From Spirochaetia bacterium (GTDB taxonomy: Bacteria > Spirochaetota > Spirochaetia > SZUA-6 > Bin103): 64,000 bases of DNA. The DNA is taken from assembly GCA_965208575.1 (NCBI GenBank), contig CBDBOV010000003.1, positions 256,001-320,000 of the forward strand, in the 5' to 3' direction. A program made the translations under genes and the position numbers. A model generated the notes under the pieces. That model was given only the letters and a program-made list of their open reading frames with translations, made no database searches and was not told the DNA's origin. The stretch's first letter is position 1. Every line of letters begins with the position of its first letter. Shown here in pieces: positions 4,348-46,060 of this stretch.

Positions 4348-4869
4348 TTGACCCGCATTGCAGGTCCGTGCTAGGGTCGCACCGCAAAGTCATGCACGGC
4401 CCCTGTAGGCCCCCACAACAAGTCAAGTTAGCCCCCCCCCAGCTCTTCATATCCCGTAGATCGCTAACTGCTCGGGCTGGTCGCCCCGCGGGCGCCTTCG
4501 GCTTCAGCACTGGGGGTAGCGGCCGGCTCCGTGTACGTCGGCTCAGTCCACGTTCGTTCACTGACCAGCGCAACCGTCCTGGATCCCCGGTCCCCAACTC
4601 ACCGTCGCAAACGCAACGCCGTCAGGTATCTGGCTGGCCACCCTGTGGCCTGTGGCCCCGAAAAAAGCAGAAAGGAGGTGCACGCTGGTACTCGAGCAAC
4701 CACGCAACGCGCGCGGCCTGAGCCCATGAGCCCATGAGTGACGTGCCGCGCGCTGGACGATCCGAGATTGCCGTCGCTGCGCAGCCGCCCGCGTTGCGGG
4801 CGCGAAAGTGCGCAGGGAGTGGCGATTCGCTACAAATATACTCTCAAAACCCAACATACGGAGTTACGT
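4348..4869 (+). promoter_or_regulatory. Conserved cassette leader U2
   Basis: TTGACC-N18-TAGGGT 4348-4377; uORF1 4392-4721 with C9 at 4432-4440; AGGAGGTG 4673-4680 then CTG uORF2 4685-4729; hairpins to 4845; homologous to 9550-9940. Confidence 0.7.
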
Positions 4870-6690
4870 ATGAACATTGTAATGACTACAAAGACCTTCG
4901 CGGTTGCGTTGGTCCTCGCCCTGGTCGCCACCGGCGTCTCGGCGAGCCCGGCCGGGGAAGAGGAGCCGGCCGCGGCGATGGAGAAGGAGATGGTGATGGA
5001 CCCGTCCACCGGCAAGATGGTGACCGCACCCGAGTACGGCGGCACCCTCACCATCGCATCCAAGAACGAGCTCCTGGACCAGGATCCGTCGATCGGCGGA
5101 CACTGGGCCGGCTTTCAGATCATGGGGGTGAACGAGAAGCTGGCATACGTCAACTGGGCCACGCCGCGGGACGAGTACCCCTTGACCTTTTGGTACACGC
5201 CGCCCCAGCACCTCACCGGGTGGCTGGCAGAGAGCTGGTCGAATCCCGACCTGCAGACGCTCATCGTCAAGGTCCGGCAGGGCGTTCACTGGCACGACAA
5301 GCCGCCGATGAACGGACGCGAGCTGACCGCCGAAGACGTCGCCTGGACCTACCGCCGCATCGGTGGCCTCCTCGACTGGAAGCCGGAGTATACCTACGCC
5401 CTGCGCAACTTTCCGTGGGAATCCATCGAGGCCACCGACCGGTACACGGTCGAGTTCAAGCTGACCGAGCCGCGTCTGGACTTGCAGAACCAGGTGCTCA
5501 CCGAGGTCGGCGTCTGGATCCTGCCACCGGAGGTCATCGAGCAGCACGGCAACTACTCCGATTGGCGGAACGTGGTCGGCACCGGGCCGTTCATGCTGGC
5601 TGACTTCCAACCCGAGGTACGCAAGCAGTGGGTGCGCAATCCCGACTACTGGGGCTTCGACGAGAAGTACCCGGACAACCGGCTGCCCTACGTCGATGAG
5701 CTGGTGGCTCTCCATATGAAGGAAGAGGCGACCTACACTGCCGCGCTGCGCACCGGCCAGGTAGACATGCTTACTGTCGGCGGCGGCATCGCGCTGGCCA
5801 CCGTCGAAGCGGTGGATGCCATCCTGAAGACCAACCCCGACATGCAGGCAGTCCCGTTCTACAGTCGCGCACTGCAGGTGTCCGGCCTGAACATCCGCCG
5901 GCCGCCGTTCGACGACATCCGCGTGCGCAAGGCGATGAACATGGCGATCGACCGCGATGCCATCAACGAGAGCTACTACGGCGGGTATGCCTACCCGACG
6001 GTGCAGGGCTGGGTCGGCGCCGCGCTCGGCGAGATGCACACTCCGTTCGCGGAGCGGTCCGCGGATCTGCAGGCTGAGTACTCCTACCATCCGCAGGAGG
6101 CCGAGCGCTTGCTTGACGAGGCCGGCTACCCGCGCGGCGCGGACGGGGTGCGGTTCAAGGTCACCTACGACCACCGCGACGTGATCGACCTCGGATGGGT
6201 CGAGATCGTGGCCGGCTACTGGAAGGCGATCGGCGTAGAGGTGGAGATCACGGTGATGGACACCGGCGCCTGGGTCGATCGCCGCGCCCGCGGGCTCTAC
6301 GAGATGACGACCGGCGACTCCGGCTGGGATCTGAGTCCCGCGCACATCATGAGCTACTACGGCTACGTCCACAACTACCAGGGCGAAGGGCAGGCGAACC
6401 AGGCGGGCGAATACACCGGCGGGCTCAAGGACGCGACCATGAGTCGGCTCTACGAGGCGTTCCAGGCTGCGACCAGCCAAGAAGCGCGGATCCCGATCAT
6501 GCGAGAGTTCGACGATTACATCATGCGCCAGCACTTCCAGGTCTACGGCCACAAGGCGCCGGCGTTCCAGCTGGCCAACCCCTGGGTCAAGGGCTGGAAC
6601 GGCGAGACGTTCCTCACGGATATGAGCAACAACGAGATTCTGGTGCGGGTCTGGATCGACCAGGACCTGAAGGCGAAAATGGGCTTCTGA
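4870..6690 (+). CDS. ABC SBP family 5 (U2)
   Basis: Same motifs as U1; GGAG RBS before ATG 4870. Confidence 0.92.
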   Translation: MNIVMTTKTFAVALVLALVATGVSASPAGEEEPAAAMEKEMVMDPSTGKMVTAPEYGGTLTIASKNELLDQDPSIGGHWAGFQIMGVNEKLAYVNWATPRDEYPLTFWYTPPQHLTGWLAESWSNPDLQTLIVKVRQGVHWHDKPPMNGRELTAEDVAWTYRRIGGLLDWKPEYTYALRNFPWESIEATDRYTVEFKLTEPRLDLQNQVLTEVGVWILPPEVIEQHGNYSDWRNVVGTGPFMLADFQPEVRKQWVRNPDYWGFDEKYPDNRLPYVDELVALHMKEEATYTAALRTGQVDMLTVGGGIALATVEAVDAILKTNPDMQAVPFYSRALQVSGLNIRRPPFDDIRVRKAMNMAIDRDAINESYYGGYAYPTVQGWVGAALGEMHTPFAERSADLQAEYSYHPQEAERLLDEAGYPRGADGVRFKVTYDHRDVIDLGWVEIVAGYWKAIGVEVEITVMDTGAWVDRRARGLYEMTTGDSGWDLSPAHIMSYYGYVHNYQGEGQANQAGEYTGGLKDATMSRLYEAFQAATSQEARIPIMREFDDYIMRQHFQVYGHKAPAFQLANPWVKGWNGETFLTDMSNNEILVRVWIDQDLKAKMGF

Positions 6691-6782
6691 CCCCGGCCGG
6701 CAGAGGGTCGAACCAACGCGGGGTGGCGGGGACGACCTGCCACCCCGTTTTCTTGCGCAACGGAGTGTGGAGGTGAGCTGAC

Positions 6783-7751
6783 GTGCGGGCGTATTTGATC
6801 AGGCGGGTGCTGCTGGTCATCCCCACCATCTTGATCATCACTGTCCTGGTGTTTCTGTCGGTGCGCTTCATTCCCGGCAGCGTCATCGAGGTGATGGTCG
6901 CCCGGATGGGCTACGAAGGCGGCGGCGCGATCGACATTGCTGCCGCGAAAAAGCGGCTCGGGCTCGACGTCCCCGTTCCCGTGCAGTACGGGCGGTGGAT
7001 CGGGAACATCGTCGTGCGTGGCACCCTCGGCAGCTCGCTATACGGCGGCTCGAGCGGCTACACCGTGGAGGCGATGATGGCCTCCAGGATAGGCGTGACC
7101 CTGGAGCTGGGGCTGCTGGCGATCCTGACCGGTTTGATCATCGCGGTGCCGATCGGTATCTATTCGGCGATTCGGCAGTACACGGTGGCCGACTACGCTG
7201 GCCGCTCGGCGGCGATCGTCGGCCTGTCGACCCCGAACTTCTGGCTCGCGCTGCTGGTCATCATCTATCCGGCCATCTGGTGGGGGTGGACGCCGCCGCT
7301 GACGCACGTCCGCTTCGCCGTCGACCCGCTGGCGAACCTCACCATGTTCCTGTTTCCCGCCCTGATCCTGGGGACCTACCTGGCGGCCAGCACGATGCGC
7401 ATGACCCGCACCATGATGCTGGAGGTGCTGCGCCAGGACTATGTAAGGACGGCTTGGGCCAAGGGCCTGCAGGAGCGCAGGGTGGTGCTCCGGCACGTCG
7501 TCAAGAACGCCCTCATCCCGGTGGTCACGCTGATCGGCCTGCAACTGCCGATCATCGCCGGTGGCTCGGTGATCATCGAGACCATTTTCAACCTGCCCGG
7601 GCTCGGACGCCTGATGCTGAGCGCGCTCAACCTGCGCGACTACCCGGTGGTGTCCGGCGTGAACCTGTTCTTCGCCTCGGTGGTGGTGCTGATCAACCTC
7701 GCCACCGACCTGGCGTACGCCTACCTGGATCCGAGGATCCGCTATGAGTGA
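6783..7751 (+). CDS. OppB-type permease (U2)
   Basis: EAA loop, LDPRIRY. Confidence 0.93.
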   Translation: MRAYLIRRVLLVIPTILIITVLVFLSVRFIPGSVIEVMVARMGYEGGGAIDIAAAKKRLGLDVPVPVQYGRWIGNIVVRGTLGSSLYGGSSGYTVEAMMASRIGVTLELGLLAILTGLIIAVPIGIYSAIRQYTVADYAGRSAAIVGLSTPNFWLALLVIIYPAIWWGWTPPLTHVRFAVDPLANLTMFLFPALILGTYLAASTMRMTRTMMLEVLRQDYVRTAWAKGLQERRVVLRHVVKNALIPVVTLIGLQLPIIAGGSVIIETIFNLPGLGRLMLSALNLRDYPVVSGVNLFFASVVVLINLATDLAYAYLDPRIRYE

Positions 7752-8736
7752 GTCGAATGCGTCGAATGCGCCGCTTTCGGTCGACGCGGGCGGCAGTCCG
7801 GTGGGTGAGGCGGCGCGTGACCCGGGCGGCGGCCGGCGCCGCCCCTTGACTGACTTCTTCGGTCGATTGCTGCGCCAGCAGCCGCTGGGCGCCGCGGCCG
7901 GCGTGGTCCTGTTGGGGCTGATCTTCGTCGCCGTCTTTGCCGAGCAGTTGACGCCGCACGAGTACGACATCGGCCGCGTGCAGGACCGCTTGCAGGCGCC
8001 CTCCGCCGAGCACCCGCTCGGCACCGATCACGCCGGCCGCGACGTGCTGGCGCGGATCCTCAAGGGCGCTCAGGTGTCGCTGCTGGTGGGGCTGATAGCG
8101 ACCCTGCTGAACACCATCGTGGCGCTGCTGGTGGGCGGCACCACGGGCTTCATCGGCGGCCGGGTCGACATCTACGCCCAGCGCTTCGTCGATGCCTGGA
8201 TGTCGTTCCCGGGATTGCTGCTGCTGCTCACCATCATGTCGTTCGTCGATCGCAGCATCGTCACGGTGATCGTGGTGCTGGGTGTCACCGGCGGCATTCC
8301 GGCGTCGCGGGTGGTGCGCGGCGCGGTGATCGGCGTCAAGGAGAACGCCTACTTCCAAGCCGCGGAGGCGGCCGGCGCGCGCCGGCGCCGGATCCTGGTG
8401 CGCCACGTGCTGCCCAACATCGCCGCGCCGCTGATCGTGATCTTCAGCATCAACGTCGGCAGCGTCATCATCGCCGAGGCCAGCTTGAGCTTCCTCGGTT
8501 TCGGCCTGCCGGTGAACGTGCCGAGCTGGGGCGGCATGCTGAGCCGCGAAGGGCGGAGGTACATGGAGCTGGCGCCGCGGCTGGCGCTGTGGCCCGGTCT
8601 GTTCCTGACGGTGACGGTGTACTGCCTCAACATGGTGGGCGACGCGGTCCGCGACCTGCTCGACCCGCGCCTGCGCGGCACCGCCGGCCGCTACGGGGGC
8701 TCCACGTCCCGCCGCCGCGGAGTTGGCACGCCCTGA
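7744..8736 (+). CDS. OppC-type permease (U2)
   Basis: LGTDHAGRD, RHVLPN, DAVRDLLDPR; overlaps oppB stop. Confidence 0.93.
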   Translation: MSESNASNAPLSVDAGGSPVGEAARDPGGGRRRPLTDFFGRLLRQQPLGAAAGVVLLGLIFVAVFAEQLTPHEYDIGRVQDRLQAPSAEHPLGTDHAGRDVLARILKGAQVSLLVGLIATLLNTIVALLVGGTTGFIGGRVDIYAQRFVDAWMSFPGLLLLLTIMSFVDRSIVTVIVVLGVTGGIPASRVVRGAVIGVKENAYFQAAEAAGARRRRILVRHVLPNIAAPLIVIFSINVGSVIIAEASLSFLGFGLPVNVPSWGGMLSREGRRYMELAPRLALWPGLFLTVTVYCLNMVGDAVRDLLDPRLRGTAGRYGGSTSRRRGVGTP

Positions 8737-9425: not shown

Positions 9426-9964
9426 TTGACGGCTGTTGCAGAGCCGGCTATGGTGAACACGTTGGGATCGCGACCGATGCGCATGATGCATGACGACCCG
9501 AACCCGCGCAGCCACTGGTGGCCCTCGAAGCGGCCGGTGATACGTCTGTCCCCCCCCCCCCCCCCAGCGTTTTCGTACATCCGGTAGATCACTAACCGTA
9601 ACCGCTCGGGCTGGTCGCGCCGCGGGCGCTTTCGCCTTCAGCACCGGGGTAGCGGGCGGCTGCGCCGGGCGCCGGCTCAGTCCACGTTCGCTCACTCGTT
9701 CACTGACGCCCGCCACGGTCCTGGATCCCCCTTCCACTGGTCAATCACGTCATCACATCCACAACAACCCGGTATTCCCGGCGTACAGGAGGTGCAAAGT
9801 GGTACGCAAAGAACCGGACGCGCGCGCGGCGTAAGCCCCGTGAGTCACGCGCCGCGCGCCTGCGGAGTTGACTCTGTTCGAACGCCTGCGTTGCGGGCGC
9901 TGAGAGTACCGGAAGCGGCAATCGCTACCCGATACTCTCGAAATCTTTCTATCAGGAGTTGGTT
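9426..9964 (+). promoter_or_regulatory. Conserved cassette leader U3
   Basis: TTGACG-N17-TATGGT 9426-9454; uORF1 9477-9587 (36 aa) with C16 at 9550-9565; AGGAGGTG then GTG uORF2 9799-9834 MVRKEPDARAA; hairpins to 9939. Confidence 0.75.
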
Positions 9965-11218
9965 ATGAACCATATAGCAAAGACCTGCGCGGTTGCGCTG
10001 GTCCTGGGCCTTGTGCTGACCGCAACCGGCCTGTGGGCCACCGGCGGCACGGAGGAGCCGGCAGCCGCCGCCGAGAAGGAAATGGTGCTCGATCCCACCA
10101 CCGGCGAAATGGTGGAGGCCCCACGATATGGCGGGACATTGACCTACGCCGAACGGGTCGAGCCGCCGGGTACCGACCCCTGGAACCAGGGCCACGGACC
10201 AAGGGGCGTCGATGGCGTTGCAGAGAAACTGGGCATCGCGAACTGGGGAATAGATAGGGATGAATTTGGCTTCGAAAGCAGGTACGTCCCGCTATTTGCC
10301 ATGAGACCGAATCTGGCGGAAAGCTGGGAAAAGCCCGACCCGCTGACTATTATCTTCAAAATCCGCCCGGGCGTTCGCTGGCACGATAAGGCACCGATGA
10401 ACGGTCGGGAGCTAACTGCCCAAGATGTCGAATACAACTTTCACCGCTATACGGGTCTGGGCAGCGGCTTCACCGAACCTAGCCCCTTCGACCCGATGAA
10501 GGCCGCGACATGGGAATCGATTACGGCCACCGACGATTCCACGGTTGTTTTTAAGTTAAAGGCGCCACGCAACGACGCGCTGGAGACTATCATCAGCGGC
10601 TGGTTTCTTTTGATAATGCCCCCCGAGGTAATCGAGCAACATGGTGACGTTCAGGACTGGAGGAACCTGGTAGGCACCGGGCCCTATATGCTGACGGACT
10701 GGGTCAAGGGCAGCTCGATGACCTATACCAAGAATCCGGACTACTGGGGCACCGACGAAAAATACCCAGAGAACCGGTTGCCCTATATTGACCAGTTAAG
10801 ACGGGTGATTATGCCCGAACAAGCAACATTTCTGGCGGCACTGCGCTCGGGTAAGCATGATATCATAGGTATACCCGGCGACACTCAGTTGGGGGATATC
10901 GGCCAGGTAGAGGCCCTCAAACGGACCAACCCCGAGATCAGGTTGTACCCGTGGTATCTAAGGTCGGGCACCTCTGTTACTTTCAACCTGCGCAGGGAGT
11001 CGCTCTTTAACGACATCCGGGTACGCCAGGCCATGCAGATGGCCATTGACCTGGAGACAATGTGGTACATATGGGGTCCTAAACCTCCCTCGTTCAATGC
11101 ATCCCAGCCATGGATCAAAGGCTATAACGGTGAAGTCGAACTGGGACTGTCTCGCTCAGTTGCCATGTTGGCCCGCATCTGGATTGATAGTGATCTGAAG
11201 CAAGAGATGGGAGGCTAG
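9965..11218 (+). pseudogene. ABC SBP family 5 with in-frame internal deletion (U3)
   Basis: About 417 aa versus about 600; jumps from MAIDLET to WYIWGP near 11060, lacking the DEAGYPRG region. Confidence 0.8.
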
Positions 11219-18535: not shown

Positions 18536-19439
18536 GTCACAGCTTGTTGAGCGTCCGCAGCAAAACCCGGCGCACGGGCATCAAAAAACAACGTCTACTC
18601 CCCTTTCTCGGAGCTTGGAGATATGGACTTCCTTCGATGTCTCGCTCAAGGGGTTGCCGGACAAACTGACAGTGTCCCCCTCAGAGAGCCCGCGGTTCTC
18701 GACCAGTGGTGAGATGTCGACTATCTGGTTGAACATGAGGTCGAGCTGAGTGAGATTAGTCAGGGAAGCTAGCGGCGAGAGGTCACTTATCTGATTCTGC
18801 TCAAGGCTGAGCGAGGTGATGCTGGTGAGGGAAGCTAGCGGTGAGACGTCGCTTATCTGGTTCTGCTCGAGACTAAGCGCGGTTAAGTTGGTCAGCGGAG
18901 CCAGTACGGAAGCCAGTAGTGAGAGGTCGCTTAGCTCGTTCCCCGTAAGGTCGAGCTGGGTGAGATTAGTCAGGGAAGCTAGCGGTGTAATGTCGCTTAT
19001 CTGGTTCAATGCAAGGTCGAGCTCAGTGAGGTTAGTCAGAGAAGCCAGTGGTGATATGTCGCTTATCCGGTTCTTCCTAAGGCCGAGATTGGTGAGATTA
19101 GTCAGGGTAGCTAGTGGCGAGATGTCGCTTATCCGGTTGTCGTAAAGGCTGAGCGAGGTGAAGTTGGCGAGCGAAGCCAGTGGTGAGAGGTCGCTTATCT
19201 GTCCATAGTGGAAAACCAGCTCGGTAAGGTTGGTCAAATACTCCAATCCGGCGAGGTCGGTGATCTTGACTCTCGCATATCCCCTGCCTGATTCACGAAG
19301 CGAGGTGATGGTTTCCAGCTCCGAAACATGGATCGGACCTTGATGCTTCTGGATAGCTGCTCTTATGACTCTCTCAAGAGCTATCCCACCGGCCCCTGGG
19401 CCGGCGCAGTCATGAAAGAAACAAGGGTGAGCTATAGTG

Positions 19440-29116: not shown

Positions 29117-29332
29117 ACATTCCTTTATGTTCAGGCTCCTGTGCTCGCTCGACCCCCTGGATGCCCCCACCTTGCAGTCCTGTGCCTGACAAAGCGGCAG
29201 GGCCTTATACACCACGCAGCTATCGTGCGGTTACCCAACACGAACTGTGGCATCACTACGTACCCGAACCGGGCAATTGGTACGGCCGGTCCTTCCCCGG
29301 CTGGAATGCAGTCTGTCGGCTGCTCAAAACCC

Positions 29333-31132: not shown

Positions 31133-31665
31133 AGAGATCGACCTCCGACAAATATTGTTTGAGAGCAGTCATTCCACTGCCGGCCCCTCGCCTGCTCCAT
31201 TCGAGCGAGGGCGACACCCCTTAGCGGTGCAGCCGCCCGGTCTTTCGTTAGTCTCTTGTCGCGTGCCTCCTTTGGCGCGCCGCGCCGAAAGGCAGCCATG
31301 CGCGCCGCCGCGCGTGGTGGCGGTGCTGCACGTCACCCATCTGCTTCTTGCTGCCGGCAAAGTCGCTACGCATGTTGATGTGGACTGGTGGAGTCGGCCG
31401 ACGTCGGCCGTTGGAGGCACGGATGCGTGGCGGGTGTGTGCCACGCGGATGGCTGGTGCCGCGCTCAGCACCGGCGCCGAGCGGCTGGCTGTCGCGCGGT
31501 CGGGTAGTCGGGTAGTCGGTAGTCGGGTAGTCGGTAGTCGGTAGTCGGTAGTCGGTAGTCGGTAGTCGGTAGTCGGTAGTCGGTAGTCGGTAGTCGGTGG
31601 CTGGGCTGGATGCTGTCGGTGCCCATTTGCGGACGAGTGTAGAGGCCGGCCCAAATCCGTGTCAA
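31133..31665 (-). promoter_or_regulatory. Divergent cassette leader U6
   Basis: TTGACA-N18-TACACT 31665-31636; uORF 31626-31465 spans the heptamer array; 31380-31500 homologous to 23770-23935; AAGGAGG kept but no clear uORF2. Confidence 0.65.
31502..31597. repeat. Heptamer tandem repeat (GGTAGTC) x13
   Basis: 13 TAGTC cores, a few units 8 bp. Confidence 0.97.
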
Positions 31666-33345: not shown

Positions 33346-33672
33346 TCTGGCTCACGGATATACGGGCGTCAGAGACGCTCAGAAGTCATTTGCCGAGCCG
33401 GGTGATGCCGCCCACGCCGCGAGCGGCGCGCAGGTTGCTGCGGAGCGCACGGAGCGAGGCGCCCCGGACAACTGCACCGAGGTGCGTTGCCCGGGGCAGG
33501 GTCATGACAATTCCCCACCGCCGGGACGGGGTAGGCGACGAGGTTGCGACACCGGAGCCGTCGGGATCGAACGGGGCGGAGGAGATGCTGTACCCCGCTG
33601 ACGGACGGAGGGCGTAGCCCGACCGGAGTCAGCCGGCGCGGTGCCGTGGAGGCCACCGTGGACGACGCCGAG

Positions 33673-35217
33673 ATGGCGGACCAGGCAGCCAAGCTGCTCG
33701 CTTCCGGGATGAGCGGCTCAGCCTGCGCTCGCGAACTCGGCATCCCGGTGAGCACCTTCAACGAGAACCGCCGCGCCGGCGTCATCACAGATCCCACCCG
33801 GGAGCCCGCCGCCAGCGCCGAGGTTGCGCCGGCGGCCACCACCACTGATCACCCGGTCAGCACCGCCGCCGCGGTCAGCGACCCGGCGGTCGCCACTGAG
33901 CGCGCCAGCCGCGACGCCCGCGACAAGCACGCGCCCATGGGCCGCGCGGCGCGCGACGTGGAACGCCGCACGCTCGCCAGAGCCGGCCTGCTGACCGAGG
34001 CCACACCAGCGTTCGTCGAGCCCGCCCACGCGGTCGCTGGCGGCGGCGTGCTGGCCGCACTGGCGATGCTGCTGCGCGAGGGCCTGCTCACCGCCGCCAA
34101 CCGCCTGTTCCGCCTGCCGGCCGGATTCTACGGCCTGACCACCATCCTCCTGTTCGTCGCCTGCATGACCCTGGCCCGGGTGCGCAACCCCGAGAGCCTG
34201 CGCTACCAGGCACCCGGCGAGTGGGGCGCCATCCTCGGCCTCGACCGCTGTCCGGAGACCAAGACGCTGCGCCGCAAGATCAGGCTGCTGGCCAGCGCCG
34301 AGCACACCGTGCGCGATTGGCAATCGGTACTGGCGCGTACCTGGGCCAGCGAGCACGACGACGACTGGACGACGCTGGCCGTGGATGGCCACGTGAAGGT
34401 GTACACCGGGCGCAACGGGCGGTTGCCGAAACACTTCGTCGCACGCCAGAAGCTGTGTCTGCCGGCGTCGGTGAGCTACTGGATCAACGCCCTCGGCGGC
34501 GCACCGCTGCTGTGCCTGCACAAGGCGCTGGACCCGAAGCCGGTGAATGCGATCAAGCACGACGTGGTGCCGCAGTTGCAGCACCTGGGGGTGGTGACCG
34601 AAGCGGCCCCCGACCTGACCGGAGCACCGGCCGGTACCCCGCAGCTGACCCTGGTGTTCGACCGCGAGGGCTGGAGCCCGGACCTGTTCAAGCGCCTGGC
34701 CCGGCGTGGCATCGCCTGCATCACCTGGCACAAGAACTTCAACGGCGCGGACTGGCTGCCGGAAGACTTCCACACCTTCGAGGTACCGATCCATGGTCCC
34801 GCCGGCACCAGCACGACTGCGGTTGATCTGGCCGAGCAGCCGATCATGCTGCGCAACGGGCTGGTGGTGCGCCAGATCCGGCGGCGTCTGGCCAACGGTC
34901 GTCAGGTGGCGGTGATCACCACGCACCCGCAGATGCCGTTGGCGCAGGTCGCCGGCGCCATGTTCTCGCGCTGGTCGCAGGAGAACTTCTTCAAGTACCT
35001 GCGCGAGCAGTTCAACCTTGACGCGCTGCCGAGCCATGACCTTGCGCCGCCGGAGCCCGACGCACGGGTCGTGAACCGGTGCGCCGGGCCCTGGAAAAGA
35101 GCATCAGGCGGGTACGCAGCCGGCTGGCAGCGGTCCGCAATCGCCTCGCCGAGGCACTGCAGGGACGGCACCGGGACTCCGCCACCCGGCTTACGGTCGC
35201 GGATAAAGTTGCACTGA
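33673..35217 (+). pseudogene. Putative DDE transposase, 3' frameshifted/truncated
   Basis: HTH, VDGHVKVY, VFDREG, RWSQENFFK motifs; degenerates after about 35080; start uncertain. Confidence 0.65.
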
Positions 35218-36741: not shown

Positions 36742-38718
36742 CCGAGGTTTGAGAGGCCGTTCTTGTAACTGTTTCCTATTACAGGAATTAGCGTGTTCAT
36801 GGGTGTAAATCGTGTCCATGTAAATAGTCCTGTGGTTCAGCGTTAATTTTCTCTCATCTGGTTGACATGTAATTATTAAATGATCTACCATTCCCTCCGT
36901 AGGGTGCCCATGTACATCGACACCGTCCCCAACCGCAACTCTCCCCCAGCCGTCCTCCTCCGCGAGTCCTTCCGCCAGCACGGCAAGGTCAAAAAACGCA
37001 CCATCGCCAACCTCTCCAAGTGGCCCGATCACCTCGTCGAGGGTTTGCGCGTCCTCCTCAACGGCGGTATCGCTCTGCGCTCTCCCAACGAACTGCTCTC
37101 CATCTTGCGCAGCTATCCCCACGGCCACGTCGCCGCCGTCCTCGGTTCCCTCCGCAAGCTCTCCCTCCATTCCCTCGTCGCTCGTCCCGCCTCCCGTGAA
37201 CGCGACCTGGTCGTCGCCATGATCGTCGCTCGCGTCGTCGACGCTCGCTCCAAACTCGCCACCGCTCGCGGCCTGAACCCCGAAAGCGCCGTCTCCTCCC
37301 TCGGCCACCTGCTGCAGTTGGGAGCCGTCGACGAGAATGAGCTGTATGCCGCCATGGATTGGCTGCTCGCTCGCCAGCACGGCATCGAGCAGCGCTTGGC
37401 CAAGCGCCATCTGCATGACAACACGCTCATGTTGTACGACCTGACTTCCAGTTACTTCCATGGCCACACCTGCCCGTTGGCGCGCCGTGGTCACAGCCGC
37501 GACGGCAAACGCGGCACCTTGCAGATCGTGTTCGGCCTGCTGTGTACCGCAGACGGCTGTCCCATCGCCGTCGAGGTATTCGAGGGCTCCACCAGTGACC
37601 CCAAGACGGTCGCCGCTCAGGTCGACAAGATTCGCAACCGTTTCGGCTTGCAGCGCGTCGTGCTGGTCGGCGACCGCGGCATGCTCACCGGCGCGCGCAT
37701 CCGCGAGGACCTGCAGGGGATCGACGGCCTGCGCTGGATCACGACCCTGCGGGCGCCCACCATCCGCAAGCTGATCGAGGCCGGCGAAGTGGCGCAGACC
37801 ATGTTCGACGAGCGTGACCTGGCGGAGATCAGCTCACCCGAGTTCCCCGGCGAGCGGCTGATCGTGTGCCGCAACCCGATCCTGGCCGAGCAACGGCAGC
37901 GCAAGAGGCAGAAGTTGCTGGCCTCCACGGAGGAGGAACTGACGCCGATCGTGACGGCCACGCAGCGCGCCAAAAAGCCGCTGCGCGGCGCCGCCGCGAT
38001 CGGCCTGCGGGTGGGCAAGGTGATCAACCACTACAAGGTGGGCAAGCATTTCACCACCACCATCACCGACGACTCGTTCTCGTTCGTGCGTGACCTGGAC
38101 AAGATCGCGGCCGAGGAAGAACTGGACGGGCTCTACATCGTGCGCTCCAACGTGGAGCCGGAGCTGTTCGACGCCGAGCAGACGGTGACGGCGTACAAGG
38201 ATCTGGCCAAGGTGGAGCGCGCCTTCCGCAGCATGAAAACGGTGGATCTGAAGGTGCGACCGATCTATCACCGCAGTGCTGACCGGGTGCGGGCGCACGT
38301 GTTCCTGTGCATGCTGGCCTACTACGTGGAGTGGCACATGCGCAGCAAGCTGGCGCCGGTGCTGTTCGACGACCACGACCGCGCCGCCGGCGAGGCGCTG
38401 CGCGAGTCGGTGGTGCAACCGGCGGAACGCTCACCGGCCGCACACCGGAAGGCGGCGAGCAAGCGTACCGACGACGGTCTGCCGGTGCACAGCTTTCGCA
38501 GCCTGATGAGCGAGTTGGGGACGCTGACGGCCAACCGCGTGCGGATAGTGGATAGCGGCGCCACGTTCACCATGCACAGCGAACCGACCGCGCTGCAGCA
38601 GCGCTGTTTCGATCTCCTGGAGGTCAGCGCCCAAGTGTAGCCAGTAACGGACATCGGCTGTTGAGCGCAATTTTCAGATCAATAACGAATTAACAAGATT
38701 CCCGCTCTGGAACTTCGG
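36742..38718 (+). mobile_element. IS1634-family element
   Basis: TSD GTTAGA 36736-36741 and 38719-38724; IRs CCGAGGTTTGAGAG / CTCTGGAACTTCGG. Confidence 0.9.
36910..38640 (+). CDS. IS1634 transposase
   Basis: YDLTSSYF, GHSRDGK, VGDRGM, VERAFR..K. Confidence 0.92.
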   Translation: MYIDTVPNRNSPPAVLLRESFRQHGKVKKRTIANLSKWPDHLVEGLRVLLNGGIALRSPNELLSILRSYPHGHVAAVLGSLRKLSLHSLVARPASRERDLVVAMIVARVVDARSKLATARGLNPESAVSSLGHLLQLGAVDENELYAAMDWLLARQHGIEQRLAKRHLHDNTLMLYDLTSSYFHGHTCPLARRGHSRDGKRGTLQIVFGLLCTADGCPIAVEVFEGSTSDPKTVAAQVDKIRNRFGLQRVVLVGDRGMLTGARIREDLQGIDGLRWITTLRAPTIRKLIEAGEVAQTMFDERDLAEISSPEFPGERLIVCRNPILAEQRQRKRQKLLASTEEELTPIVTATQRAKKPLRGAAAIGLRVGKVINHYKVGKHFTTTITDDSFSFVRDLDKIAAEEELDGLYIVRSNVEPELFDAEQTVTAYKDLAKVERAFRSMKTVDLKVRPIYHRSADRVRAHVFLCMLAYYVEWHMRSKLAPVLFDDHDRAAGEALRESVVQPAERSPAAHRKAASKRTDDGLPVHSFRSLMSELGTLTANRVRIVDSGATFTMHSEPTALQQRCFDLLEVSAQV

Positions 38719-39467: not shown

Positions 39468-39973
39468 TTGACACCTGGCCTCGTCCATGCCATGGTTGCG
39501 CGAAGCGGGCCGATGCGTATGACGCGTAACGACACCCTTCAGCGTTGCTTCCGGACGGTGGTCTTGCAACCGGTGCGCCCCCCGGCCGCGGAGGCGATAC
39601 ACCTAACTCTCCATCCTGCAGAAACAACCGAACGCTCCGGGCGACCGGGCGGCGCGTACGGGTGCTCCTGCGCGTGCCCTCGCCTTCGGCATCACACCGT
39701 CGACTATCGAACTACCGAGCCAGACCATCCGGGCGGCCCAGGCGGCAACCCGCGCGTGAGATCCGCCAAACGGGGAGGTGCACGTTGGTACGCAAGGAAC
39801 CACGCCACGCGCGCGGCCTGAGCCCATGAGCCCATGAGGCACCCGCCGCGCGCACGACGATCCGTGATTGCCGCCGCTGTTTGGCCGCCCGCGTTGCGGG
39901 CGCGAGAGTGGCAGGGAGCGGCAACTCACCATGGCAGAACTCTCAACACACAGAGAATCGAGGAGTGATCAAT
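39468..39973 (+). promoter_or_regulatory. Conserved cassette leader U7
   Basis: TTGACA-N17-CATGGT; uORF1 39513-39821 with C6 at 39578-39583; GGGAGGTG then TTG uORF2 39785-39829. Confidence 0.72.
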
Positions 39974-41773
39974 ATGGATCTTCCAAGAATCGCACACACC
40001 TTCGTGTGTGTGCTCGTGCTCGGCTTGGCCGCAACCGGCCTGTGGGCGGCTGCGGCGGAAGAGGAGCCGGCCGCGGCGATGGAGAAGGAAATGGTGCGCG
40101 ACCCGGCCACCGGCGAGATGGTCAGCGCGCCTGAGTATGGCGGGACATTTACCTATGCCACGTCGCTCGAGGCTCCGCATGCCGACACCCACGTCAGTCA
40201 TCTCCCGGGGCTGGTCACCAGCGGTGTCACGGAGAAGCTCGGAATCATGGACTGGGCAGTAGACCGGGACGTGTTTTCGTTCAGTCACTGGTACATGCCG
40301 CCATCCCTCTTTGTACCGCACCTGGCTGAGAGCTGGGACACCCCTGACCCACTCACGATCATCTTCAACATTCGCCAGGGCGTGTACTGGCAAGACAAGG
40401 CACCGATGAATGGGAGAGAGCTGACCGCTGATGATGTCGTATTCAACTTTCATCGCCAGCTGGGCCTGGGCGACTTTGCCGAAGCCGGACCGAGCCCCTT
40501 TACGTATGAGCGGCCACCACTGGGCGGGTCGGTAACGGCCACCGACCGATACACGGTCGTTATCGAGCTGGCGGAGCCGAGCAGCGGAGCTCTTGGGCAG
40601 TATCTCGGCATCGGTCTCACCTACATAAACCCCCCCGAAGTCATCAAGGAACACGGTGACATGAAGGACTGGAGGAACCTGGTCGGTACCGGTCCCTACA
40701 TGCTGACCGACTGGACCGAGGGCAGCTCCATGACCTTGCAGAGGAATCCTGATTACTGGAAAGACGATGAGAAGTACCCGGGGAATCGTCTGCCCTATAT
40801 CGACGAGATACAGGGCCTTTTCATCAAAGAGGAAGCAACAATTCTGGCGGGACTGCGCACGGCCAAGATTGACTTCATGGGGAGCACTACCGGTCCGCCC
40901 AACATCACATCGGTCGAAGTGCTCGACAGCATCCGCAAGAGCAATCCCGAAATCGTGCTGCAGCCGTGGTGGAGCCGTTCCGTAAACTCGTTTGTTATGG
41001 ACGCGAGCAAGCCGCCCTTTGACGACATCAGGGTGCGCAAAGCAATGCAGATGGCAATCGACCTCGAGGGCATTGACCGCGACTTCTACAAGGGCACTTC
41101 GATGTGGCAGCCTCAGGGGATAGTGGGGGAAGGCATCACCGAGTATTTCACCCCATTTGAAGAGTGGCCAGAAGAGGTCAAGAAGGGCTATCGGTACGAT
41201 CCGGCGGGGGCGGAAGCCTTGCTGGATGAGGCCGGATATCCGCGCGGTGCGGACGGCACCAGATTCAATACCACACTGAACGTTTCTGCTACACTCGATA
41301 TAGGCTACAGCGAACTGGCTGGTACGTACTGGGCTGAGATCGGCGTCGACGTGCAGATCAACCCATGGGATACTGGCCCCTTTGGGGCTGCTCGAAGGGA
41401 CCGTACTTGGGACGGTCTGATGTGGGAGCCTCTGGGCACGAATGGTAATCCCATGTCGTATATACGCGGCTCCGTACACTCGAGCAGTATGAATGACTTG
41501 CACGGAATCAGGTATCCTGAGTTGGACTCCCTTATTGAAGCCGCCGAAGCCACTGATTCCGAACAGGAGCGGCAGAAACTGGCTAAAGAGGTGGATCTGT
41601 ACACCATGGCGAACCACTGGTGGATATGGGGCCCTAAAACCGGCAGCTACATGGCGCACCAGCCGTGGATCGCCGGCTTCAACGGTGAAGTCTGGCTGGG
41701 ACGCATGGACTTCCTCACCGTCATCGCGCGCGTCTGGATCGACAGTGCGCTGAAGGCGGAAATGGGCAATTAG
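39974..41773 (+). CDS. ABC SBP family 5 (U7)
   Basis: GAGGAG RBS, family motifs. Confidence 0.92.
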   Translation: MDLPRIAHTFVCVLVLGLAATGLWAAAAEEEPAAAMEKEMVRDPATGEMVSAPEYGGTFTYATSLEAPHADTHVSHLPGLVTSGVTEKLGIMDWAVDRDVFSFSHWYMPPSLFVPHLAESWDTPDPLTIIFNIRQGVYWQDKAPMNGRELTADDVVFNFHRQLGLGDFAEAGPSPFTYERPPLGGSVTATDRYTVVIELAEPSSGALGQYLGIGLTYINPPEVIKEHGDMKDWRNLVGTGPYMLTDWTEGSSMTLQRNPDYWKDDEKYPGNRLPYIDEIQGLFIKEEATILAGLRTAKIDFMGSTTGPPNITSVEVLDSIRKSNPEIVLQPWWSRSVNSFVMDASKPPFDDIRVRKAMQMAIDLEGIDRDFYKGTSMWQPQGIVGEGITEYFTPFEEWPEEVKKGYRYDPAGAEALLDEAGYPRGADGTRFNTTLNVSATLDIGYSELAGTYWAEIGVDVQINPWDTGPFGAARRDRTWDGLMWEPLGTNGNPMSYIRGSVHSSSMNDLHGIRYPELDSLIEAAEATDSEQERQKLAKEVDLYTMANHWWIWGPKTGSYMAHQPWIAGFNGEVWLGRMDFLTVIARVWIDSALKAEMGN

Positions 41774-41856
41774 CTCTCCCTCCGGAGGGGGACAGGACAA
41801 CGGATTGTCCTCCTCCGAGGGTCAGATGACGGGAAGATCGCGGTGAGGCGCAGCAC

Positions 41857-42810
41857 ATGAAAGCCCACGTCATCAGGCGGTTGCTGCTGGTCATCCCCAC
41901 CCTGTTCATCCTCAGCATCCTGGTCTTTCTGTCGGTCCGCTTCATTCCGGGTGATGTGATCGACGTGATGCAAGGCAGGCTGGGCGGCCTGGGGCAGGTG
42001 GACCGTGCAGCGCTCGAGCGGATGCTGGGACTGGACCAGCCGGTGTACGTGCAGTACGGGCGCTGGTTGGGCGATATCCTGCTGCACGGCAGCCTGGGCC
42101 GCTCGCTGATGGGCGACTGGTCGGTAGAGGAGAAGATTCTCGCTCGATTGCCGGTCACCATCGAATTGGGCGTGCTGTCAATCGTCATCGGGCTGTTGAT
42201 CGCGCTCCCGGTCGGCATCTACTCGGCGATTCGCCAGGATACGGCGGTCGACTACGCCGGCCGCTCCATCGCCATCCTGGGCCTGGCAACGCCCAACTTC
42301 TGGCTCGCCCTGATGGTGATGATCTACCCGGCGATCTGGTGGGGCTGGTCGCCGCCGATGCGGCTGATCACGTTCAGCGAAGACCCGCTGGGGAACCTGG
42401 GCATGTTCCTGATTCCGAGCCTGATCCTGGGGACCTACCTGGCCGCCGCCACCATGCGCATGACGCGCACCATGATGCTGGAAGTGCTGCGCCAGGACTA
42501 CATCAGGACGGCGTGGTCCAAGGGCCTGAAGGAGCGGGTGGTGGTGGTGCGGCACGCGGTCAAGAACGTGCTGATTCCGGTGGTTACGCTGATCGGCCTG
42601 CAGTTGCCCATCCTGGTAGGCGGCGCCGTGATCATCGAGAATATCTTCAACCTGCCCGGTTTGGGCCGCCTGATGCTGGTGGCTCTCACTGACAGAGACT
42701 TCCCGGTGGTCGCCGGCATCAACCTGGTGTTCGGCACCGCGGTGATGGGGATCAACCTGATGATCGACCTGGTCTATGCGGTCCTGGATCCCCGGGTCCG
42801 GTACCAGTAG
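41857..42810 (+). CDS. OppB-type permease (U7)
   Basis: Full-length. Confidence 0.93.
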   Translation: MKAHVIRRLLLVIPTLFILSILVFLSVRFIPGDVIDVMQGRLGGLGQVDRAALERMLGLDQPVYVQYGRWLGDILLHGSLGRSLMGDWSVEEKILARLPVTIELGVLSIVIGLLIALPVGIYSAIRQDTAVDYAGRSIAILGLATPNFWLALMVMIYPAIWWGWSPPMRLITFSEDPLGNLGMFLIPSLILGTYLAAATMRMTRTMMLEVLRQDYIRTAWSKGLKERVVVVRHAVKNVLIPVVTLIGLQLPILVGGAVIIENIFNLPGLGRLMLVALTDRDFPVVAGINLVFGTAVMGINLMIDLVYAVLDPRVRYQ

Positions 42811-42829
42811 GGGCCGGGGACGTGGCAGC

Positions 42830-43708
42830 ATGCGCACGCGGTTCCTGACCCGGCTGGTCAGGGAGAAGCCGCTCGGCACGGCCAGCGGCATCGCCGTAGT
42901 GATCCTGATTCTGGTGGCCATCTTCGCCGACGTCCTCGCTCCCTATCCCTACGGGGAACGGCACCTGCCGGACCGCCTGCAGGGCTCATCGGCCCAGTAC
43001 CTGCTCGGTACCGACCACCTGGGGCGCGACCTCCTGAGCCGCATCATCCACGGCGCCCGGGTCTCTCTGACGGTGGGTCTGGCAGCCACCACGGTCAACG
43101 TGCTGGTCGCCGTACTGATCGGCGGCACGTCGGGATTCCTGGGCGGCAGGCTGGACCTGGTGGTGCAGCGGTTCGTGGATGCCTGGATGTCGTTCCCGGG
43201 ACTGCTGCTGTTGTTGACCGTCATATCGATCGTGGGCCAGGGGCTGCTGCAACTGATCGCGGTCCTGGGCATCTCGGGCGGCATCGTCGGCTCGCGCGTG
43301 CTCAGGAGCGCGGTCATCGGGGTAAAGGGGAACGACTATTTTCAGTCGGCGGTGGCGATCGGCGCCTCGCAGTGGAAGATCATCGTCCGCCACGTGCTGC
43401 CCAACATCGCGGCACCGATCATCGTGGTATTCAGCATCAACGTGGGGGGCGTGATCATCTCGGAGGCTGCGTTGAGCTTCCTGGGCTTCGGCCTGCCGAT
43501 CGAGATTCCGAGCTGGGGCGGGATGCTGAGCCGGGAGGGACGCCAGTACATGGAGGCGGCGCCGCACCTCGCGTTGTGGCCCGGCCTGGCGTTGACGGTC
43601 ACCGTGTACAGCCTGAACATGCTCGGCGACGCGGTGCGCGACCTGCTCGACCCGCGGCTGATCGGTGGCGCCGGCCGCCTGGGCGCGCAAGACACCCGGT
43701 CCGTGTAG
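42830..43708 (+). CDS. OppC-type permease (U7)
   Basis: Full-length; start uncertain. Confidence 0.92.
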   Translation: MRTRFLTRLVREKPLGTASGIAVVILILVAIFADVLAPYPYGERHLPDRLQGSSAQYLLGTDHLGRDLLSRIIHGARVSLTVGLAATTVNVLVAVLIGGTSGFLGGRLDLVVQRFVDAWMSFPGLLLLLTVISIVGQGLLQLIAVLGISGGIVGSRVLRSAVIGVKGNDYFQSAVAIGASQWKIIVRHVLPNIAAPIIVVFSINVGGVIISEAALSFLGFGLPIEIPSWGGMLSREGRQYMEAAPHLALWPGLALTVTVYSLNMLGDAVRDLLDPRLIGGAGRLGAQDTRSV

Positions 43709-44534: not shown

Positions 44535-45400
44535 CGCGAACCACAGCAGCCGAAAGGCCCGGCTGCCGCGCAGCAACTCTCCGTAGCCGCCACGGCTACG
44601 CATGGCACGCCTCCGGCCGGCGCTGCGCCCGAATAACACCACTGCCGCGCAGCGATTCGCCGCCGCGTTCACGCATGCGGCGCCCCCGGCGGTGACCACG
44701 ACGGGCGCCCGCGGCGGAGTTGGAGCGAGCCGTCGCGTGTCTCCTGATCGGTTGGCGGGATGGTGGAGATACCTGTCGCCGGCGTCAACAAGCAGATGCA
44801 ATTCGCGCAATGGGGTTGGAGGTGCTGATCGAGTTGGTCGAGCGCGCCGGGGTGCTGATGAGCGCCGCCAAGCCGGGGTAGGTTACATACCTCGCCATGA
44901 CTGCCGCCCACCCGCTGCCGCTCTCGTATATTGTGAGAACCTACGAGCTGAGTCCCGCGGTGCTGGAGACGGCAGCGCGGGCGGCGAAGCCGCAACGCTG
45001 GGAGGCGCTGATGTCAACGGTCGCGGAAGCATGGATGCGGGAGGGCAAGGCCGAGGGCAAGGCCCAGGGTAGAGCCGAGGGCAAGGCCGAGACGCTGCTT
45101 CGTCTTTTGCAGCGGCGATTCGGTCCCGTTGCGGAGAGTGCTCGGGCACGGGTGGCGGGCGGGTCGGCGGCGGAGATCGATGCCTGGTTCGATGCCCTGC
45201 TTGACGCGCAAAGCCTGACGGAGGTGTTCGACGCCCATCCGCAGTGAGCGCCGCCCGACCGCTCGGTGTGAGGCGAAGAGGTAACCGACCCATGCCGGCC
45301 CCCGTTCTGCTGACGGACCAACAGGTTCAGGACTACCTGACCCATGGCTACCTGGTGCGGCGATGCGGCCATCCGGCTGCGGTGCACCGGCGCATCCTGC
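44535..45400. pseudogene. Collapsed copy of 58880-60670 carrying an Rpn/DUF4351 C-terminal fragment
   Basis: MFS 5' end, DUF1801 3' end and PhyH 5' end in the same order; EGKAEG..LLRLLQRRFG at 44930-45247. Confidence 0.75.
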
Positions 45401-45537
45401 CGCCGCCGCCGTCAAGTCGCGCGGACGACCCCGCCGACCCCGCGAGGGCCACGATCTTGCGCCGCTTGCACTCTCGTGGCGGATGTGATAGAGTGACGAA
45501 ATGAAGCGAGCGAGAGCAACCGCTCAACCGCTCGCGT

Positions 45538-46060
45538 TTGACACCTGGCCTCGTCCATGCCACGGTTGCGCGAAGCGGGCCCGATGCGTATGACGCGCAA
45601 AGACACTTTTCAGCGTTGCTACCGGACGGTGGCTATCCAACCCGTGCGCCCGCCCGCCCCCCCCCCGGGGGGCCGCGGAGGCGATACACCTAACTCTCCA
45701 TCCTGCAGAAACAACCGAACGCTCCGGGCGACCGGGCGGCGCGTACGGGTGCTCCTGCGCGTGCCCTCGCCTTCGGCATCACACCGTCGACTATCGAACT
45801 ACCGAGCCAGACTATCCGGGCGGCCCAGGCGGCAACCCGCGCGTGAGATCCGCCAAACGGGGAGGTGCACGTTGGTACGCAAGGAACCACGCCACGCGCG
45901 CGGCCTGAGCCCATGAGCCCATGAGGCACCCGCCGCGCGCACGACGATCCGTGATTGCCGCCGCTGTTTGGCCGCCCGCGTTGCGGGCGCGAGAGTGGCA
46001 GGGAGCGGCAACTCACCATGGCAGAACTCTCAACACACAGAGAATCGAGGAGTGATCAAT
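45538..46060 (+). promoter_or_regulatory. Conserved cassette leader U8
   Basis: TTGACA-N17-CACGGT; uORF1 from 45584 with C10G6 at 45657-45672, in frame with uORF2 45872-45916. Confidence 0.72.

Follow-up and report, generated by a model that had tools for sequence, protein, structure and literature searches.

Repeat-phased translated leaders before solute-binding protein genes in a Spirochaetia bacterium: a candidate switch for paralogous transporter operons

The window analysed here is the whole 64,000-nt stretch at positions 256,001 to 320,000 of contig CBDBOV010000003.1, from the Spirochaetia bacterium assembly GCA_965208575.1. It has a G+C content of 63% and contains seven genes for solute-binding proteins (SBPs) of the Pfam family SBP_bac_5. 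Wherever the flanks were checked, genes for OppB-like and OppC-like permeases lie 3' of the SBP genes, forming ATP-binding cassette (ABC) transporter cassettes of the Opp/Dpp type. Six of the SBP genes are preceded by a leader (L1 to L6) and the seventh by the 3' end of another (L0). These leaders are part of a family in which a repeat inside a leader open reading frame (ORF) appears to determine how far ribosomes travel towards a downstream hairpin module. The SBP genes, all assigned by Pfam, are:

64-1902, plus strand: SBP gene of the partial leader L0
4870-6690, plus strand: SBP_bac_5 gene 1, followed by an OppB-like (6783-7751) and an OppC-like (7744-8736) permease gene
9965-11218, plus strand: SBP_bac_5 gene 2, a short copy
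21383-23200, minus strand: SBP_bac_5 gene 3
29333-31132, minus strand: SBP_bac_5 gene 4, followed by an OppC-like permease gene (28011-29192)
39974-41773, plus strand: SBP_bac_5 gene 5, followed by permease genes at 41857-42810 and 42776-43708
46061-47854, plus strand: SBP_bac_5 gene 6

SBP gene 2 is probably broken, as a truncated or frameshifted pseudogene, because it encodes ~417 amino acids compared with ~600 in its paralogues and matches the Pfam profile no further than position 234 of 368. The subfamily to which these genes belong is expanded to an extreme degree in the 6.5-Mb genome, with 160 tblastn loci, 111 of them near-full-length close paralogues, and the paralogous proteins are 41-45% identical in amino-acid sequence. 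Solved structures are found only among distant peptide-, opine- and nickel-binding relatives, and a substrate is not called. The sequencing runs that hold the window are labelled as sponge or coral-reef metagenomes, and the genome encodes both Rho and elongation factor P (EF-P; genes rho and efp).

A full leader of 0.5-1 kb runs from a sigma-70-like promoter through a leader ORF, a frame-shifting repeat, a two-frame stop module and a C-rich open-frame spacer to a module termed M3. Two further modules recur upstream. M1 combines TTGACA-N17-TAnnnT with the start of a leader ORF of the form M.MKRHDDSQRS.R..V..PV (70 genome matches), and M2 is a post-repeat stop module (37 genome matches), the repeat being located between the two. 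M3 is ~200 nt long and consists of a strong Shine-Dalgarno (SD) sequence, an 11-codon mini-ORF, a 12-bp GC hairpin and three further hairpins. In the window, where uORF1 denotes the first upstream ORF, the parts are:

1-85, plus strand: L0, partial 3' end of M3 (positions 141-222 of covariance model R1), cut by the window edge and running into the SBP gene at 64-1902
4348-4377, plus strand: L1 promoter-like TTGACC-18-TAGGGT, missed by the consensus scan
4392-4721, plus strand: L1 leader ORF, 109 codons, through C9 to the first TGA inside M3; predicted ON
4432-4440, plus strand: L1 repeat, C9
4652-4879, plus strand: L1 M3, class 2 (covariance model), mini-ORF 4685-4729 with CTG start
9426-9454, plus strand: L2 promoter-like TTGACG-17-TATGGT, the sole site that also passes the consensus scan
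9477-9587, plus strand: L2 uORF1, 36 codons (MRMMHDD...SPPPPP...), containing C16 and stopping 19 nt past the tract; predicted OFF
9550-9565, plus strand: L2 repeat, C16
9765-9974, plus strand: L2 M3 (covariance model), mini-ORF 9799-9834 with GTG start, VVRKEPDARAA*
24187-24159, minus strand: L3 promoter-like TTGACG-17-TATGCT
24135-23947 and 24057-23947, minus strand: L3, two tandem uORF1 copies, both stopping 27 nt past C11; predicted OFF
23984-23974, minus strand: L3 repeat, C11
23411-23191, minus strand: L3 M3, class 1 (covariance model), mini-ORF 23377-23342, MILKEPHARAA*
31665-31636, minus strand: L4 promoter-like TTGACA-18-TACACT
31626-31465, minus strand: L4 uORF, 53 codons, through the 7-nt repeat and stopping 48 nt past it
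31597-31513, minus strand: L4 repeat, ~12 units of CCGACTA
31464-31133, minus strand: L4 3' half, termed M3b (4 genome copies); a P4-like helix, GAGCAG...CTGCTC, precedes the ribosome-binding site
from 39468, plus strand: L5 promoter-like TTGACA-17-CATGGT (sequence reading)
39513-39821, plus strand: L5 leader ORF, 102 codons, through C6 to the first TGA in M3; long phase
39578-39583, plus strand: L5 repeat, C6
39752-39981, plus strand: L5 M3, class 2 (covariance model), mini-ORF 39785-39829 with TTG start
from 45538, plus strand: L6 promoter-like TTGACA-17-CACGGT (sequence reading)
45584-45916, plus strand: L6 leader ORF, 110 codons, through C10G6, in frame with the mini-ORF and sharing its stop
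45657-45672, plus strand: L6 repeat, C10G6
45839-46068, plus strand: L6 M3, class 2 (covariance model), mini-ORF 45872-45916

The sequence-only reading of this DNA had described six leaders and a partial seventh sharing one order of parts, and the parts it listed are present at or near the positions it gave them. It placed a uORF1 beginning MRM in four leaders and a strong SD with a mini-ORF in five. Both counts hold, the former for L2, L3 (in two tandem copies), L5 and L6, while L1 reads MHGP and L4 MGTD. The shared layout stands for L1, L2, L3, L5, L6 and the partial copy at 1-85, all of which carry M3, but not for L4, whose 3' half is non-homologous. Nor is uORF1 the short ORF it was taken to be in L1, L5 and L6, where 102-110 codons span the leader into M3. 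The picture of uORF1 and uORF2 as two separate small ORFs likewise gives way, as the long frame of the ON phase ends at the mini-ORF stop or overlaps the mini-ORF start. In L3, an ORF at 23866-23342 (minus strand) is open in the frame of the mini-ORF.

Across the 111 near-full-length paralogues, the leaders are mosaics of these modules: 22 have M1, M2 and M3, 18 only M3, 11 only M1, 10 M1 and M3, seven M2 and M3, one only M2, and 42 none of the three. M1 often occurs as two or three tandem copies before one SBP gene, as at contig coordinates C6:950788-951180, C4:537835-538067 and C6:140322-140408 and at 24187-23947 in the window.

M3 is tightly linked to the SBP genes. An nhmmer profile built from five window copies and run against the 6.5-Mb genome returned 62 copies at E < 1e-5. 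Of these, 61 immediately precede an SBP_bac_5 gene, with constant spacing and orientation; 60 precede a close ~600-aa SBP paralogue and one a more distant SBP_bac_5 gene, the last copy being a truncated remnant. Seen from the genes, 57 of the 111 near-full-length close paralogues carry M3. The L6 copy scores the same as the L5 copy in both nhmmer and the covariance model. A dispersed miniature inverted-repeat transposable element (MITE) unlinked to SBP genes had been named as an alternative at the outset, and this reading fails because 61 of the 62 copies are so linked, in one orientation (terminal repeats were not looked for). The median pairwise nucleotide identity of M3 is 0.78, compared with 0.69 for the SBP coding sequence and 0.62 for the 200 nt upstream of M3, and M3 identity exceeds that of the coding sequence in 139 of 150 sampled pairs.

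M3 was also followed into related genomes. Its covariance model matches seven of the 10 other species-level genomes of the genus, with more than 230 hits from at most 56 scored candidates per genome, and none of 13 sister-genus genomes or of 17 genomes from the rest of the order. The relatives with M3 are 'Spirochaetia bacterium' metagenome-assembled genomes (MAGs). Related SBP expansions are seen in MAGs titled Spirochaetia, 'bacterium' and Dehalococcoidia, and M3 occurs only in the Spirochaetia ones and in two small contigs binned elsewhere. Rfam release 15 gave no match over the whole window in gathering-score mode, and in E-value mode the leader modules at four leader loci were unmatched, so that a known Rfam family, the other alternative named at the outset, fails as well; the only strong match was an antisense group II intron fragment. 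Literature searches of main texts, with supplements outside their scope, returned no account of this leader or of contingency loci in sponge symbionts. Judged by its sequence, M3 is an undescribed RNA/leader-peptide family. The leader family looks specific to the genus, with the six leaders of the window as a sample of it.

The structure predicted for M3 contains the helices P1, P2, P3, P4, P5 and P6 and two tentative pseudoknot helices, along with conserved unpaired stretches. When 69 copies drawn from several genomes were aligned with MAFFT, 86.6% of the cells proved to be paired, compared with 29-52% for slid partners. Both partners have changed in 24 pairs, and on none of five measures does any of 500 shuffles match the real alignment. 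An alignment of 92 copies to the covariance model, which leans towards the model, gave 88.4% paired cells and compensatory changes in 26 of 44 pairs (0 of 500 shuffles). The latter alignment also contains many U-G cells, 24 and 30 of them in P3 and 33 in the pair that closes P5; on the other strand these would be C-A mismatches, and the sense-strand RNA is therefore the folded molecule. P1 is a 12-bp G+C stem, 95-96% paired, whose 5' arm is formed by the last four codons and the stop of the mini-ORF. Next come P3 and P4/P5, and then a hairpin with the SBP start codon in its stem and the SD in its loop. The 8 nt past the 3' arm of P1 contain one or two T in 40 of 66 copies and at least four in 12.

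The class-2 copies of M3 (L1, L5 and L6) carry an 8-nt tandem repeat, TGAGCCCA x2.5, in the P1 loop (4719-4738, 39819-39838 and 45906-45925). Because eight is not a multiple of three, this repeat gives TGA in all three frames and would act as a three-frame ribosome stop. Orthologues of the L2 locus (L139, L140 and L141, in genomes G006, G005 and G001) are without the P1 3' arm through a ~23-nt deletion, and their mini-ORF is followed instead by the hairpin CGGGGC-GUGA-GCCCCG. They represent a third structural form of M3, with model scores of 109-128 bits.

The two pseudoknot candidates, Px (GAGUCA/UGACUC) and Pk (CUGGC/GCCAG), are 75-89% paired with few compensatory changes and are retained as tentative only. 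Pairing of the sequence around the mini-ORF start with that following P1 was rejected: the helix is perfect in leaders h10, h13 and h25, but from column to column only 13 to 65 of the 69 copies can form it. TGGC-N-TTGC in M3 was also set aside as a sigma-54 site, because its spacing is, by eye, one base too long. An RNA switch acting on the accessibility of the SBP ribosome-binding site was not seen in nested folds, the only folds modelled: with a ribosome placed on the mini-ORF under either of two footprint constraints, the unpaired probability stayed the same in 16 copies. A P4-like helix, GAGAGY...RCTCTC, followed by an A-rich stretch and an SD, is also found just before the SBP start in leaders that lack M3 (upstream of C5:373771, C5:382763, C6:172804 and C6:985446, and at 31133-31200 on the minus strand of the window). 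It shows changed pairs such as GAGAGC/GUUCUC and GAGCAG/CUGCUC, and may be the most widely conserved element of these leaders.

The mini-ORF of M3 starts 5-7 nt beyond a strong, GGAGGUG-like SD. The start codon in 67 parsed copies is ATG in 44, GTG in eight, TTG in six, CTG in five and another codon in four. The mini-ORF is 11 codons long in 46 of the 67, with the consensus MILKEPHARAA (M-I/V-L/R-K-E-P-x-x-R-A-A), and five copies end as MILKEP*. The Lys, Glu and Pro codons of 69 aligned copies have an entropy of 0-0.3 at positions 1 and 2 and of 0.47, 0.91 and 1.19 at position 3, and all four Pro synonyms are in use. As these codons are near-invariant at positions 1 and 2 and free at position 3, the pattern points to selection on the peptide beyond that on the RNA. 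Among 66 copies of M3, frame 0 meets a stop before the P1 3' arm is complete in 61, and frame +1 is closed by the ATGA in 54. Glu-Pro-stop is a poor context for termination, and the conservation of MILKEP suggests a programmed pause or slow termination that would hold the ribosome over P1.

The repeats upstream of M3 are as distinctive as the module itself. The genome contains 55 poly-C/G tracts of at least 8 bases. In 29 cases an SBP paralogue follows within 1200 nt, and each of these 29 tracts reads as C on the sense strand. These tracts range from 8 to 55 nt and are located in the leader ORF, 280-940 nt upstream and outside both the promoter spacer and the structural gene; the Pro runs in uORF1 comprise 2-18 residues, the longest tract of 55 nt giving 18 Pro codons. 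Leaders of the L4 type have a 7-nt unit in place of poly-C. The ratio of C to G is 1.15-1.45 in the 300 nt before M3, compared with ~0.9 in coding sequence. Tract lengths differ among related sequences: the C9 of the window is C15 in a contig from an independent sponge metagenome, the C16 site of L2 has no tract, C8 or C3TC7 in three other species, and the recent duplicates L5 and L6 differ at the tract (C6G2 and C10G6). Cassettes 5 and 6 as a whole are near-identical tandem duplicates, with the differences between their leaders found mainly in uORF1 and the repeat.

The principal new finding concerns the reading frames. Twenty-two leaders of this genome that combine a tract of at least C6 with M2 and M3 were examined. 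In every one of them (22 of 22), precisely two of the frames leaving the tract meet a stop codon no more than 45 nt further on. Of these closed frames (44 of 44), 19 close at a conserved TAA, 16 at a TGA that is likewise conserved and nine before either. The remaining frame has no stop for 129-772 nt; it is closed by the mini-ORF stop in 14 leaders, by the TGA of the ATGA overlap in five and elsewhere in three, so that the long frame terminates at or next to the 5' arm of P1 in 19 of 22. A frame open from tract to mini-ORF exists in 21 of 22 leaders, whereas dinucleotide shuffles predict 10.6, and none of 200,000 simulated sets reaches 21; on the antisense strand such a frame is found in three of 22. 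With this set included, the design is present in at least 35 leaders examined across this genome and its relatives. Six of 18 M3-bearing loci in other genomes have a tract, and all six show the same arrangement with a long frame of 213-713 nt to the mini-ORF stop, and all seven M3-less poly-C leaders of this genome have two early stops and one frame open for 206-382 nt.

The long frame is not an ordinary gene. Its GC content at codon positions 1, 2 and 3 is flat (0.67/0.67/0.68, compared with 0.63/0.42/0.89 in the SBP gene) and the spacer is poorly conserved, and this candidate was rejected. Leaders h10 and h13 contain a fragment of a group II intron in antisense orientation, and the frame runs through it without a stop. 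The selected property of the spacer seems to be its openness, that is, the passage of ribosomes. The fragment itself is a ~140-nt match to Rfam group-II-D1D4-6 (RF02005) at 100-103 bits (gathering score 49), antisense to the leader, at L086:287-426 and L089:288-427 (both plus strand; roughly G000:C4:509113-509252 and 524746-524885). It adjoins a hairpin just upstream of the mini-ORF SD and looks like a truncated piece of a group II intron; judging by translations, the stretch seems common to h24, h25, h28 and h42.

At the assembled tract lengths, nine of the 22 leaders are predicted to be in the long (ON) phase, 12 in a short (OFF) phase and one in neither. The window shows the same mixture, with L1, L5 and L6 reading through to M3 and L2, L3 and L4 stopping just past the repeat. 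The leader of the short SBP gene 2 is thus also in a short (OFF) predicted phase.

Together with the anatomy and conservation of the leaders, their coding and pairing signatures, the mixed phases and the differences in tract length between samples and species, this three-frame design leads us to a model that we regard as probable, though well short of assured. The element would be a repeat-phased translated leader, in which tract length sets whether ribosomes read through to P1 and thereby switches each transporter operon. The phase would depend on repeat length, modulo 3 for poly-C and with any change of unit number for the 7-mer. In the ON phase, ribosomes would trail RNA polymerase along the whole leader and terminate inside P1, keeping Rho off the C-rich RNA and P1 unfolded, and the operon would be transcribed. 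In the two OFF phases, ribosomes would be lost no later than 45 nt past the repeat, leaving hundreds of nucleotides of C-rich RNA bare, and P1 would fold; transcription would then be cut short by Rho and/or the hairpin, with the expected effects on RNA and protein output. Slippage at the repeats, its rate permitting, would give each cell a heritable and reversible subset of expressed transporters, and the poly-Pro stretch may add a dependence on EF-P or proline.

Poly(C) is a strong substrate of Rho. We favour Rho-dependent polarity, possibly aided by P1, because P1 is without a good U-tract. EF-P, polyproline stalling and Rho are reported to be linked, in that loss of EF-P uncouples translation from transcription and Rho terminates (PMC5021804). 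A link of this kind fits the strict use of C, never G.

The sequence-only reading, which combined slipped-strand phase variation with ribosome-coupled RNA switching to select the transporter paralogue expressed, is partly supported by these results. Frame-shifting repeats do lie inside the leader ORF, and their phase sets the position of the stop relative to the hairpin module. Tract lengths that differ between samples and species fit slipped-strand variation choosing among the transporter paralogues. A switch in the accessibility of the SBP ribosome-binding site is not supported by nested folds.

Several observations weigh against the repeat-phased model. The strong SD of the mini-ORF could allow its translation, and hence the melting of P1, whatever the upstream phase, although de novo initiation there may be too slow relative to transcription to uncouple P1 from the phase. 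The repeat part is not universal, given that 18 of 111 paralogues have M3 without M1 or M2 and 42 have no module. By shuffling, a frame is open by chance in ~48% of cases per locus, and the leaders are homologous, so that the counts are not independent events. In leaders of the L5/L6 type, two of the three frames reach M3, which weakens the contrast between ON and OFF. The change from C9 to C15 is the sole between-sample difference; it keeps the frame and comes from one contig of a diverged strain. The coding signature of uORF1 is weak, as the signal at codons 2-6 is circular through the selection of copies by a regular expression and codons 7-10 give no clear signal. P1 was rejected as a canonical intrinsic terminator for its weak U-tract. 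RNA contigs cover M3 and the SBP coding sequence, yet assembled contigs are silent on transcript ends and levels. Over 4348-4621, no RNA contig was found in X15 or X16; contigs cannot show absence, and nothing is concluded from this.

Some other features of the window are noted here. Transposase genes (Transposase_29, DDE_Tnp_1) lie between SBP cassettes 4 and 5, at 33544-35217 and 36880-38640, both on the plus strand. Three tandem repeats are unexplained: one of 66/132-nt units (x4.4) at 18908-19199, one of a 21-nt unit (x5.3) at 21085-21195, just 3' of SBP gene 3, and one of a 79-nt unit (x2.4) at 58903-59093.

The alternative that survives best, although we consider it unlikely, is that M3 alone regulates as a nascent-peptide or ligand-sensing attenuator responding to one global signal, the repeats and the long frame being incidental. 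M3 does occur without M1 or M2 in 18 of the 111 paralogues, its mini-ORF has peptide-level selection and an SD of its own, its helices are well supported and accompanied by conserved unpaired stretches, and with no Rfam match it could be an undescribed sensor. Such a sensor leaves unexplained, however, both the design of two closed frames and one open frame (19 of 22 leaders here, six of six in other genomes and seven of seven with other 3' modules) and the strand bias of all 29 tracts, and occupancy of the mini-ORF leaves the accessibility of the SBP ribosome-binding site unchanged in nested folds. Control by M3 is also compatible with the repeat-phased leader, of which it may form a second tier.

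An improbable alternative is that poly-C acts physiologically, through a dependence of poly-Pro on EF-P or Pro-tRNA in the manner of mgtL/mgtP and through Rho loading on poly(C), with tract length serving as a rheostat; slippage of RNA polymerase on long tracts would in addition mix the frames. The use of C and never G on the sense strand in 29 of 29 tracts, which pure frame-shifting would not need, speaks for this, as do tracts of up to 55 nt (18 Pro codons), the efp and rho genes and the termination by Rho that is reported to follow loss of EF-P at polyproline (PMC5021804). Leaders of the L4 type, on the other hand, have a 7-nt repeat and no poly-Pro, yet show the same downstream stops. Many tracts are short (C6-C9), and the conservation of a TAA and a TGA in the two other frames would be pointless unless the reading frame mattered.

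It is very improbable that the long leader ORFs encode functional small proteins of 100-200 amino acids, produced together with the transporter, with a high content of Pro, Arg and Ala and with MILKEPHARAA at their C-terminal end. Such a product would agree with a frame that lacks stops over as much as 772 nt and shares the register of the mini-ORF, but the GC content at codon positions is flat (0.67/0.67/0.68, against 0.63/0.42/0.89 in neighbouring genes), the spacer, with an identity of 0.62, ranges in length between 129 and 772 nt and contains a piece of an antisense intron, and 12 of 22 copies are out of phase. Scarcely credible, finally, and already largely refuted, is the view that the leaders have no function and resemble one another through recent duplication, gene conversion or a landed MITE, with the repeats as neutral products of slippage: cassettes 5 and 6 are indeed recent duplicates, transposase genes lie between cassettes and the leaders are module mosaics, but 61 of 62 M3 copies precede SBP genes with constant spacing and orientation, the conservation of M3 exceeds that of the adjoining coding sequence and extends across eight species-level genomes, and the helices of M3 show compensatory and strand-specific wobble pairs alongside synonymous-type variation in the mini-ORF.

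Beyond the repeat-phased leader itself, we tentatively put forward a broader proposal, less likely than not, in which the repeat-phased frame and an arrest-peptide sensor in M3 would jointly exert a genus-wide, two-tier contingency control of several dozen uptake operons. In the first tier, a hypermutable repeat would frame a spacer ORF whose sole task is to deliver ribosomes over 130-770 nt to a hairpin. In the second, the M3 RNA family, with an arrest-type MILKEP peptide, would report a common signal to all paralogues. Each cell would thus display a random, heritable and revisable subset of more than 100 binding-protein paralogues. The C-tract would at the same time be a poly-Pro brake and a landing pad for Rho, and this would explain the strand bias of 29 in 29.

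Phase variation is known mostly from the surface antigens of pathogens. Here its logic appears to govern nutrient uptake in an uncultured animal symbiont, across dozens of paralogous operons together, and if this is true the bet-hedging concerns substrates and not antigens. The leaders would offer a testable account of how a genome with more than 100 SBP paralogues picks those to express, and they form a natural data set on how the position of the ribosome behind RNA polymerase controls read-through. M3 would add a new multi-copy cis-regulatory RNA family, with 62 copies here and members in seven of 10 other genomes of the genus. The ON and OFF calls can be read from metagenomes, and symbiont populations may thus be phenotyped by sequence.

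Parts of this arrangement have counterparts in known systems. The trp, his and pheL leaders are classical amino-acid attenuators, and as in these the translation of a leader peptide would determine RNA folding before the operon; the mini-ORF, in contrast, has no regulatory codon run, no exclusive 2:3 and 3:4 helices were found in nested folds, and the U-tract is weak. One might take the poly-Pro of uORF1 for such a run, although it is distant from any terminator. Salmonella mgtL and mgtP are leader ORFs with proline codons, in which consecutive Pro codons limit the progress of the ribosome and so control downstream transcription via RNA structure or Rho. They have 3-4 fixed Pro codons at single loci and no frame logic, unlike the hypermutable C6-C55 tracts and their stops described here. 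In tnaC, ribosome arrest at the Pro-stop of the leader peptide hides a Rho site. The resemblance lies in the Pro near the stop (five of 67 mini-ORFs end in MILKEP*), the C-rich surrounding RNA and the rho gene of the genome; arrest at the mini-ORF and a ligand for it are putative. The fim genes of Bordetella and the contingency loci of Neisseria vary in phase through poly-C/G tracts in promoters or coding regions, and they share with the present leaders the use of homopolymeric tracts as switches at many loci per genome. The difference is that the tract here is strictly strand-biased, lies in a leader ORF and belongs to a sponge-associated symbiont instead of a pathogen.

To our knowledge, control by a repeat in a leader ORF has so far been described for one streptococcal pilus locus. 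This is pil1 of S. gallolyticus, which, contrary to the view that the combination of parts was unlike known leaders, provides a precedent: GCAGA repeats in the leader-peptide gene are reported to set the position of the stop relative to a terminator hairpin, a stop 39 bp before the hairpin giving low expression and one within or after it high expression (PMC3894217). Both systems have a repeat of non-multiple-of-3 length inside a leader ORF, short phases that stop well before the hairpin and a long phase that stops within or beside it; in pil1, the ribosome is reported to prevent folding, and expression to be stochastically ON or OFF. The two have no sequence relationship, and the leaders described here, known from their sequence alone, differ from pil1 in several respects. 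At least 35 of them precede transporter paralogues and not one pilus locus, and the repeat is poly-C (poly-Pro) or a 7-mer, not a 5-mer. Their long frame of 129-772 nt leads to a conserved mini-ORF end with its own SD and peptide signature, and their hairpin is without a good U-tract, so that Rho may be involved. By this analogy, the leader family appears to be a variant of the pil1-type mechanism in a new setting, the dozens of transporter operons of a sponge symbiont.

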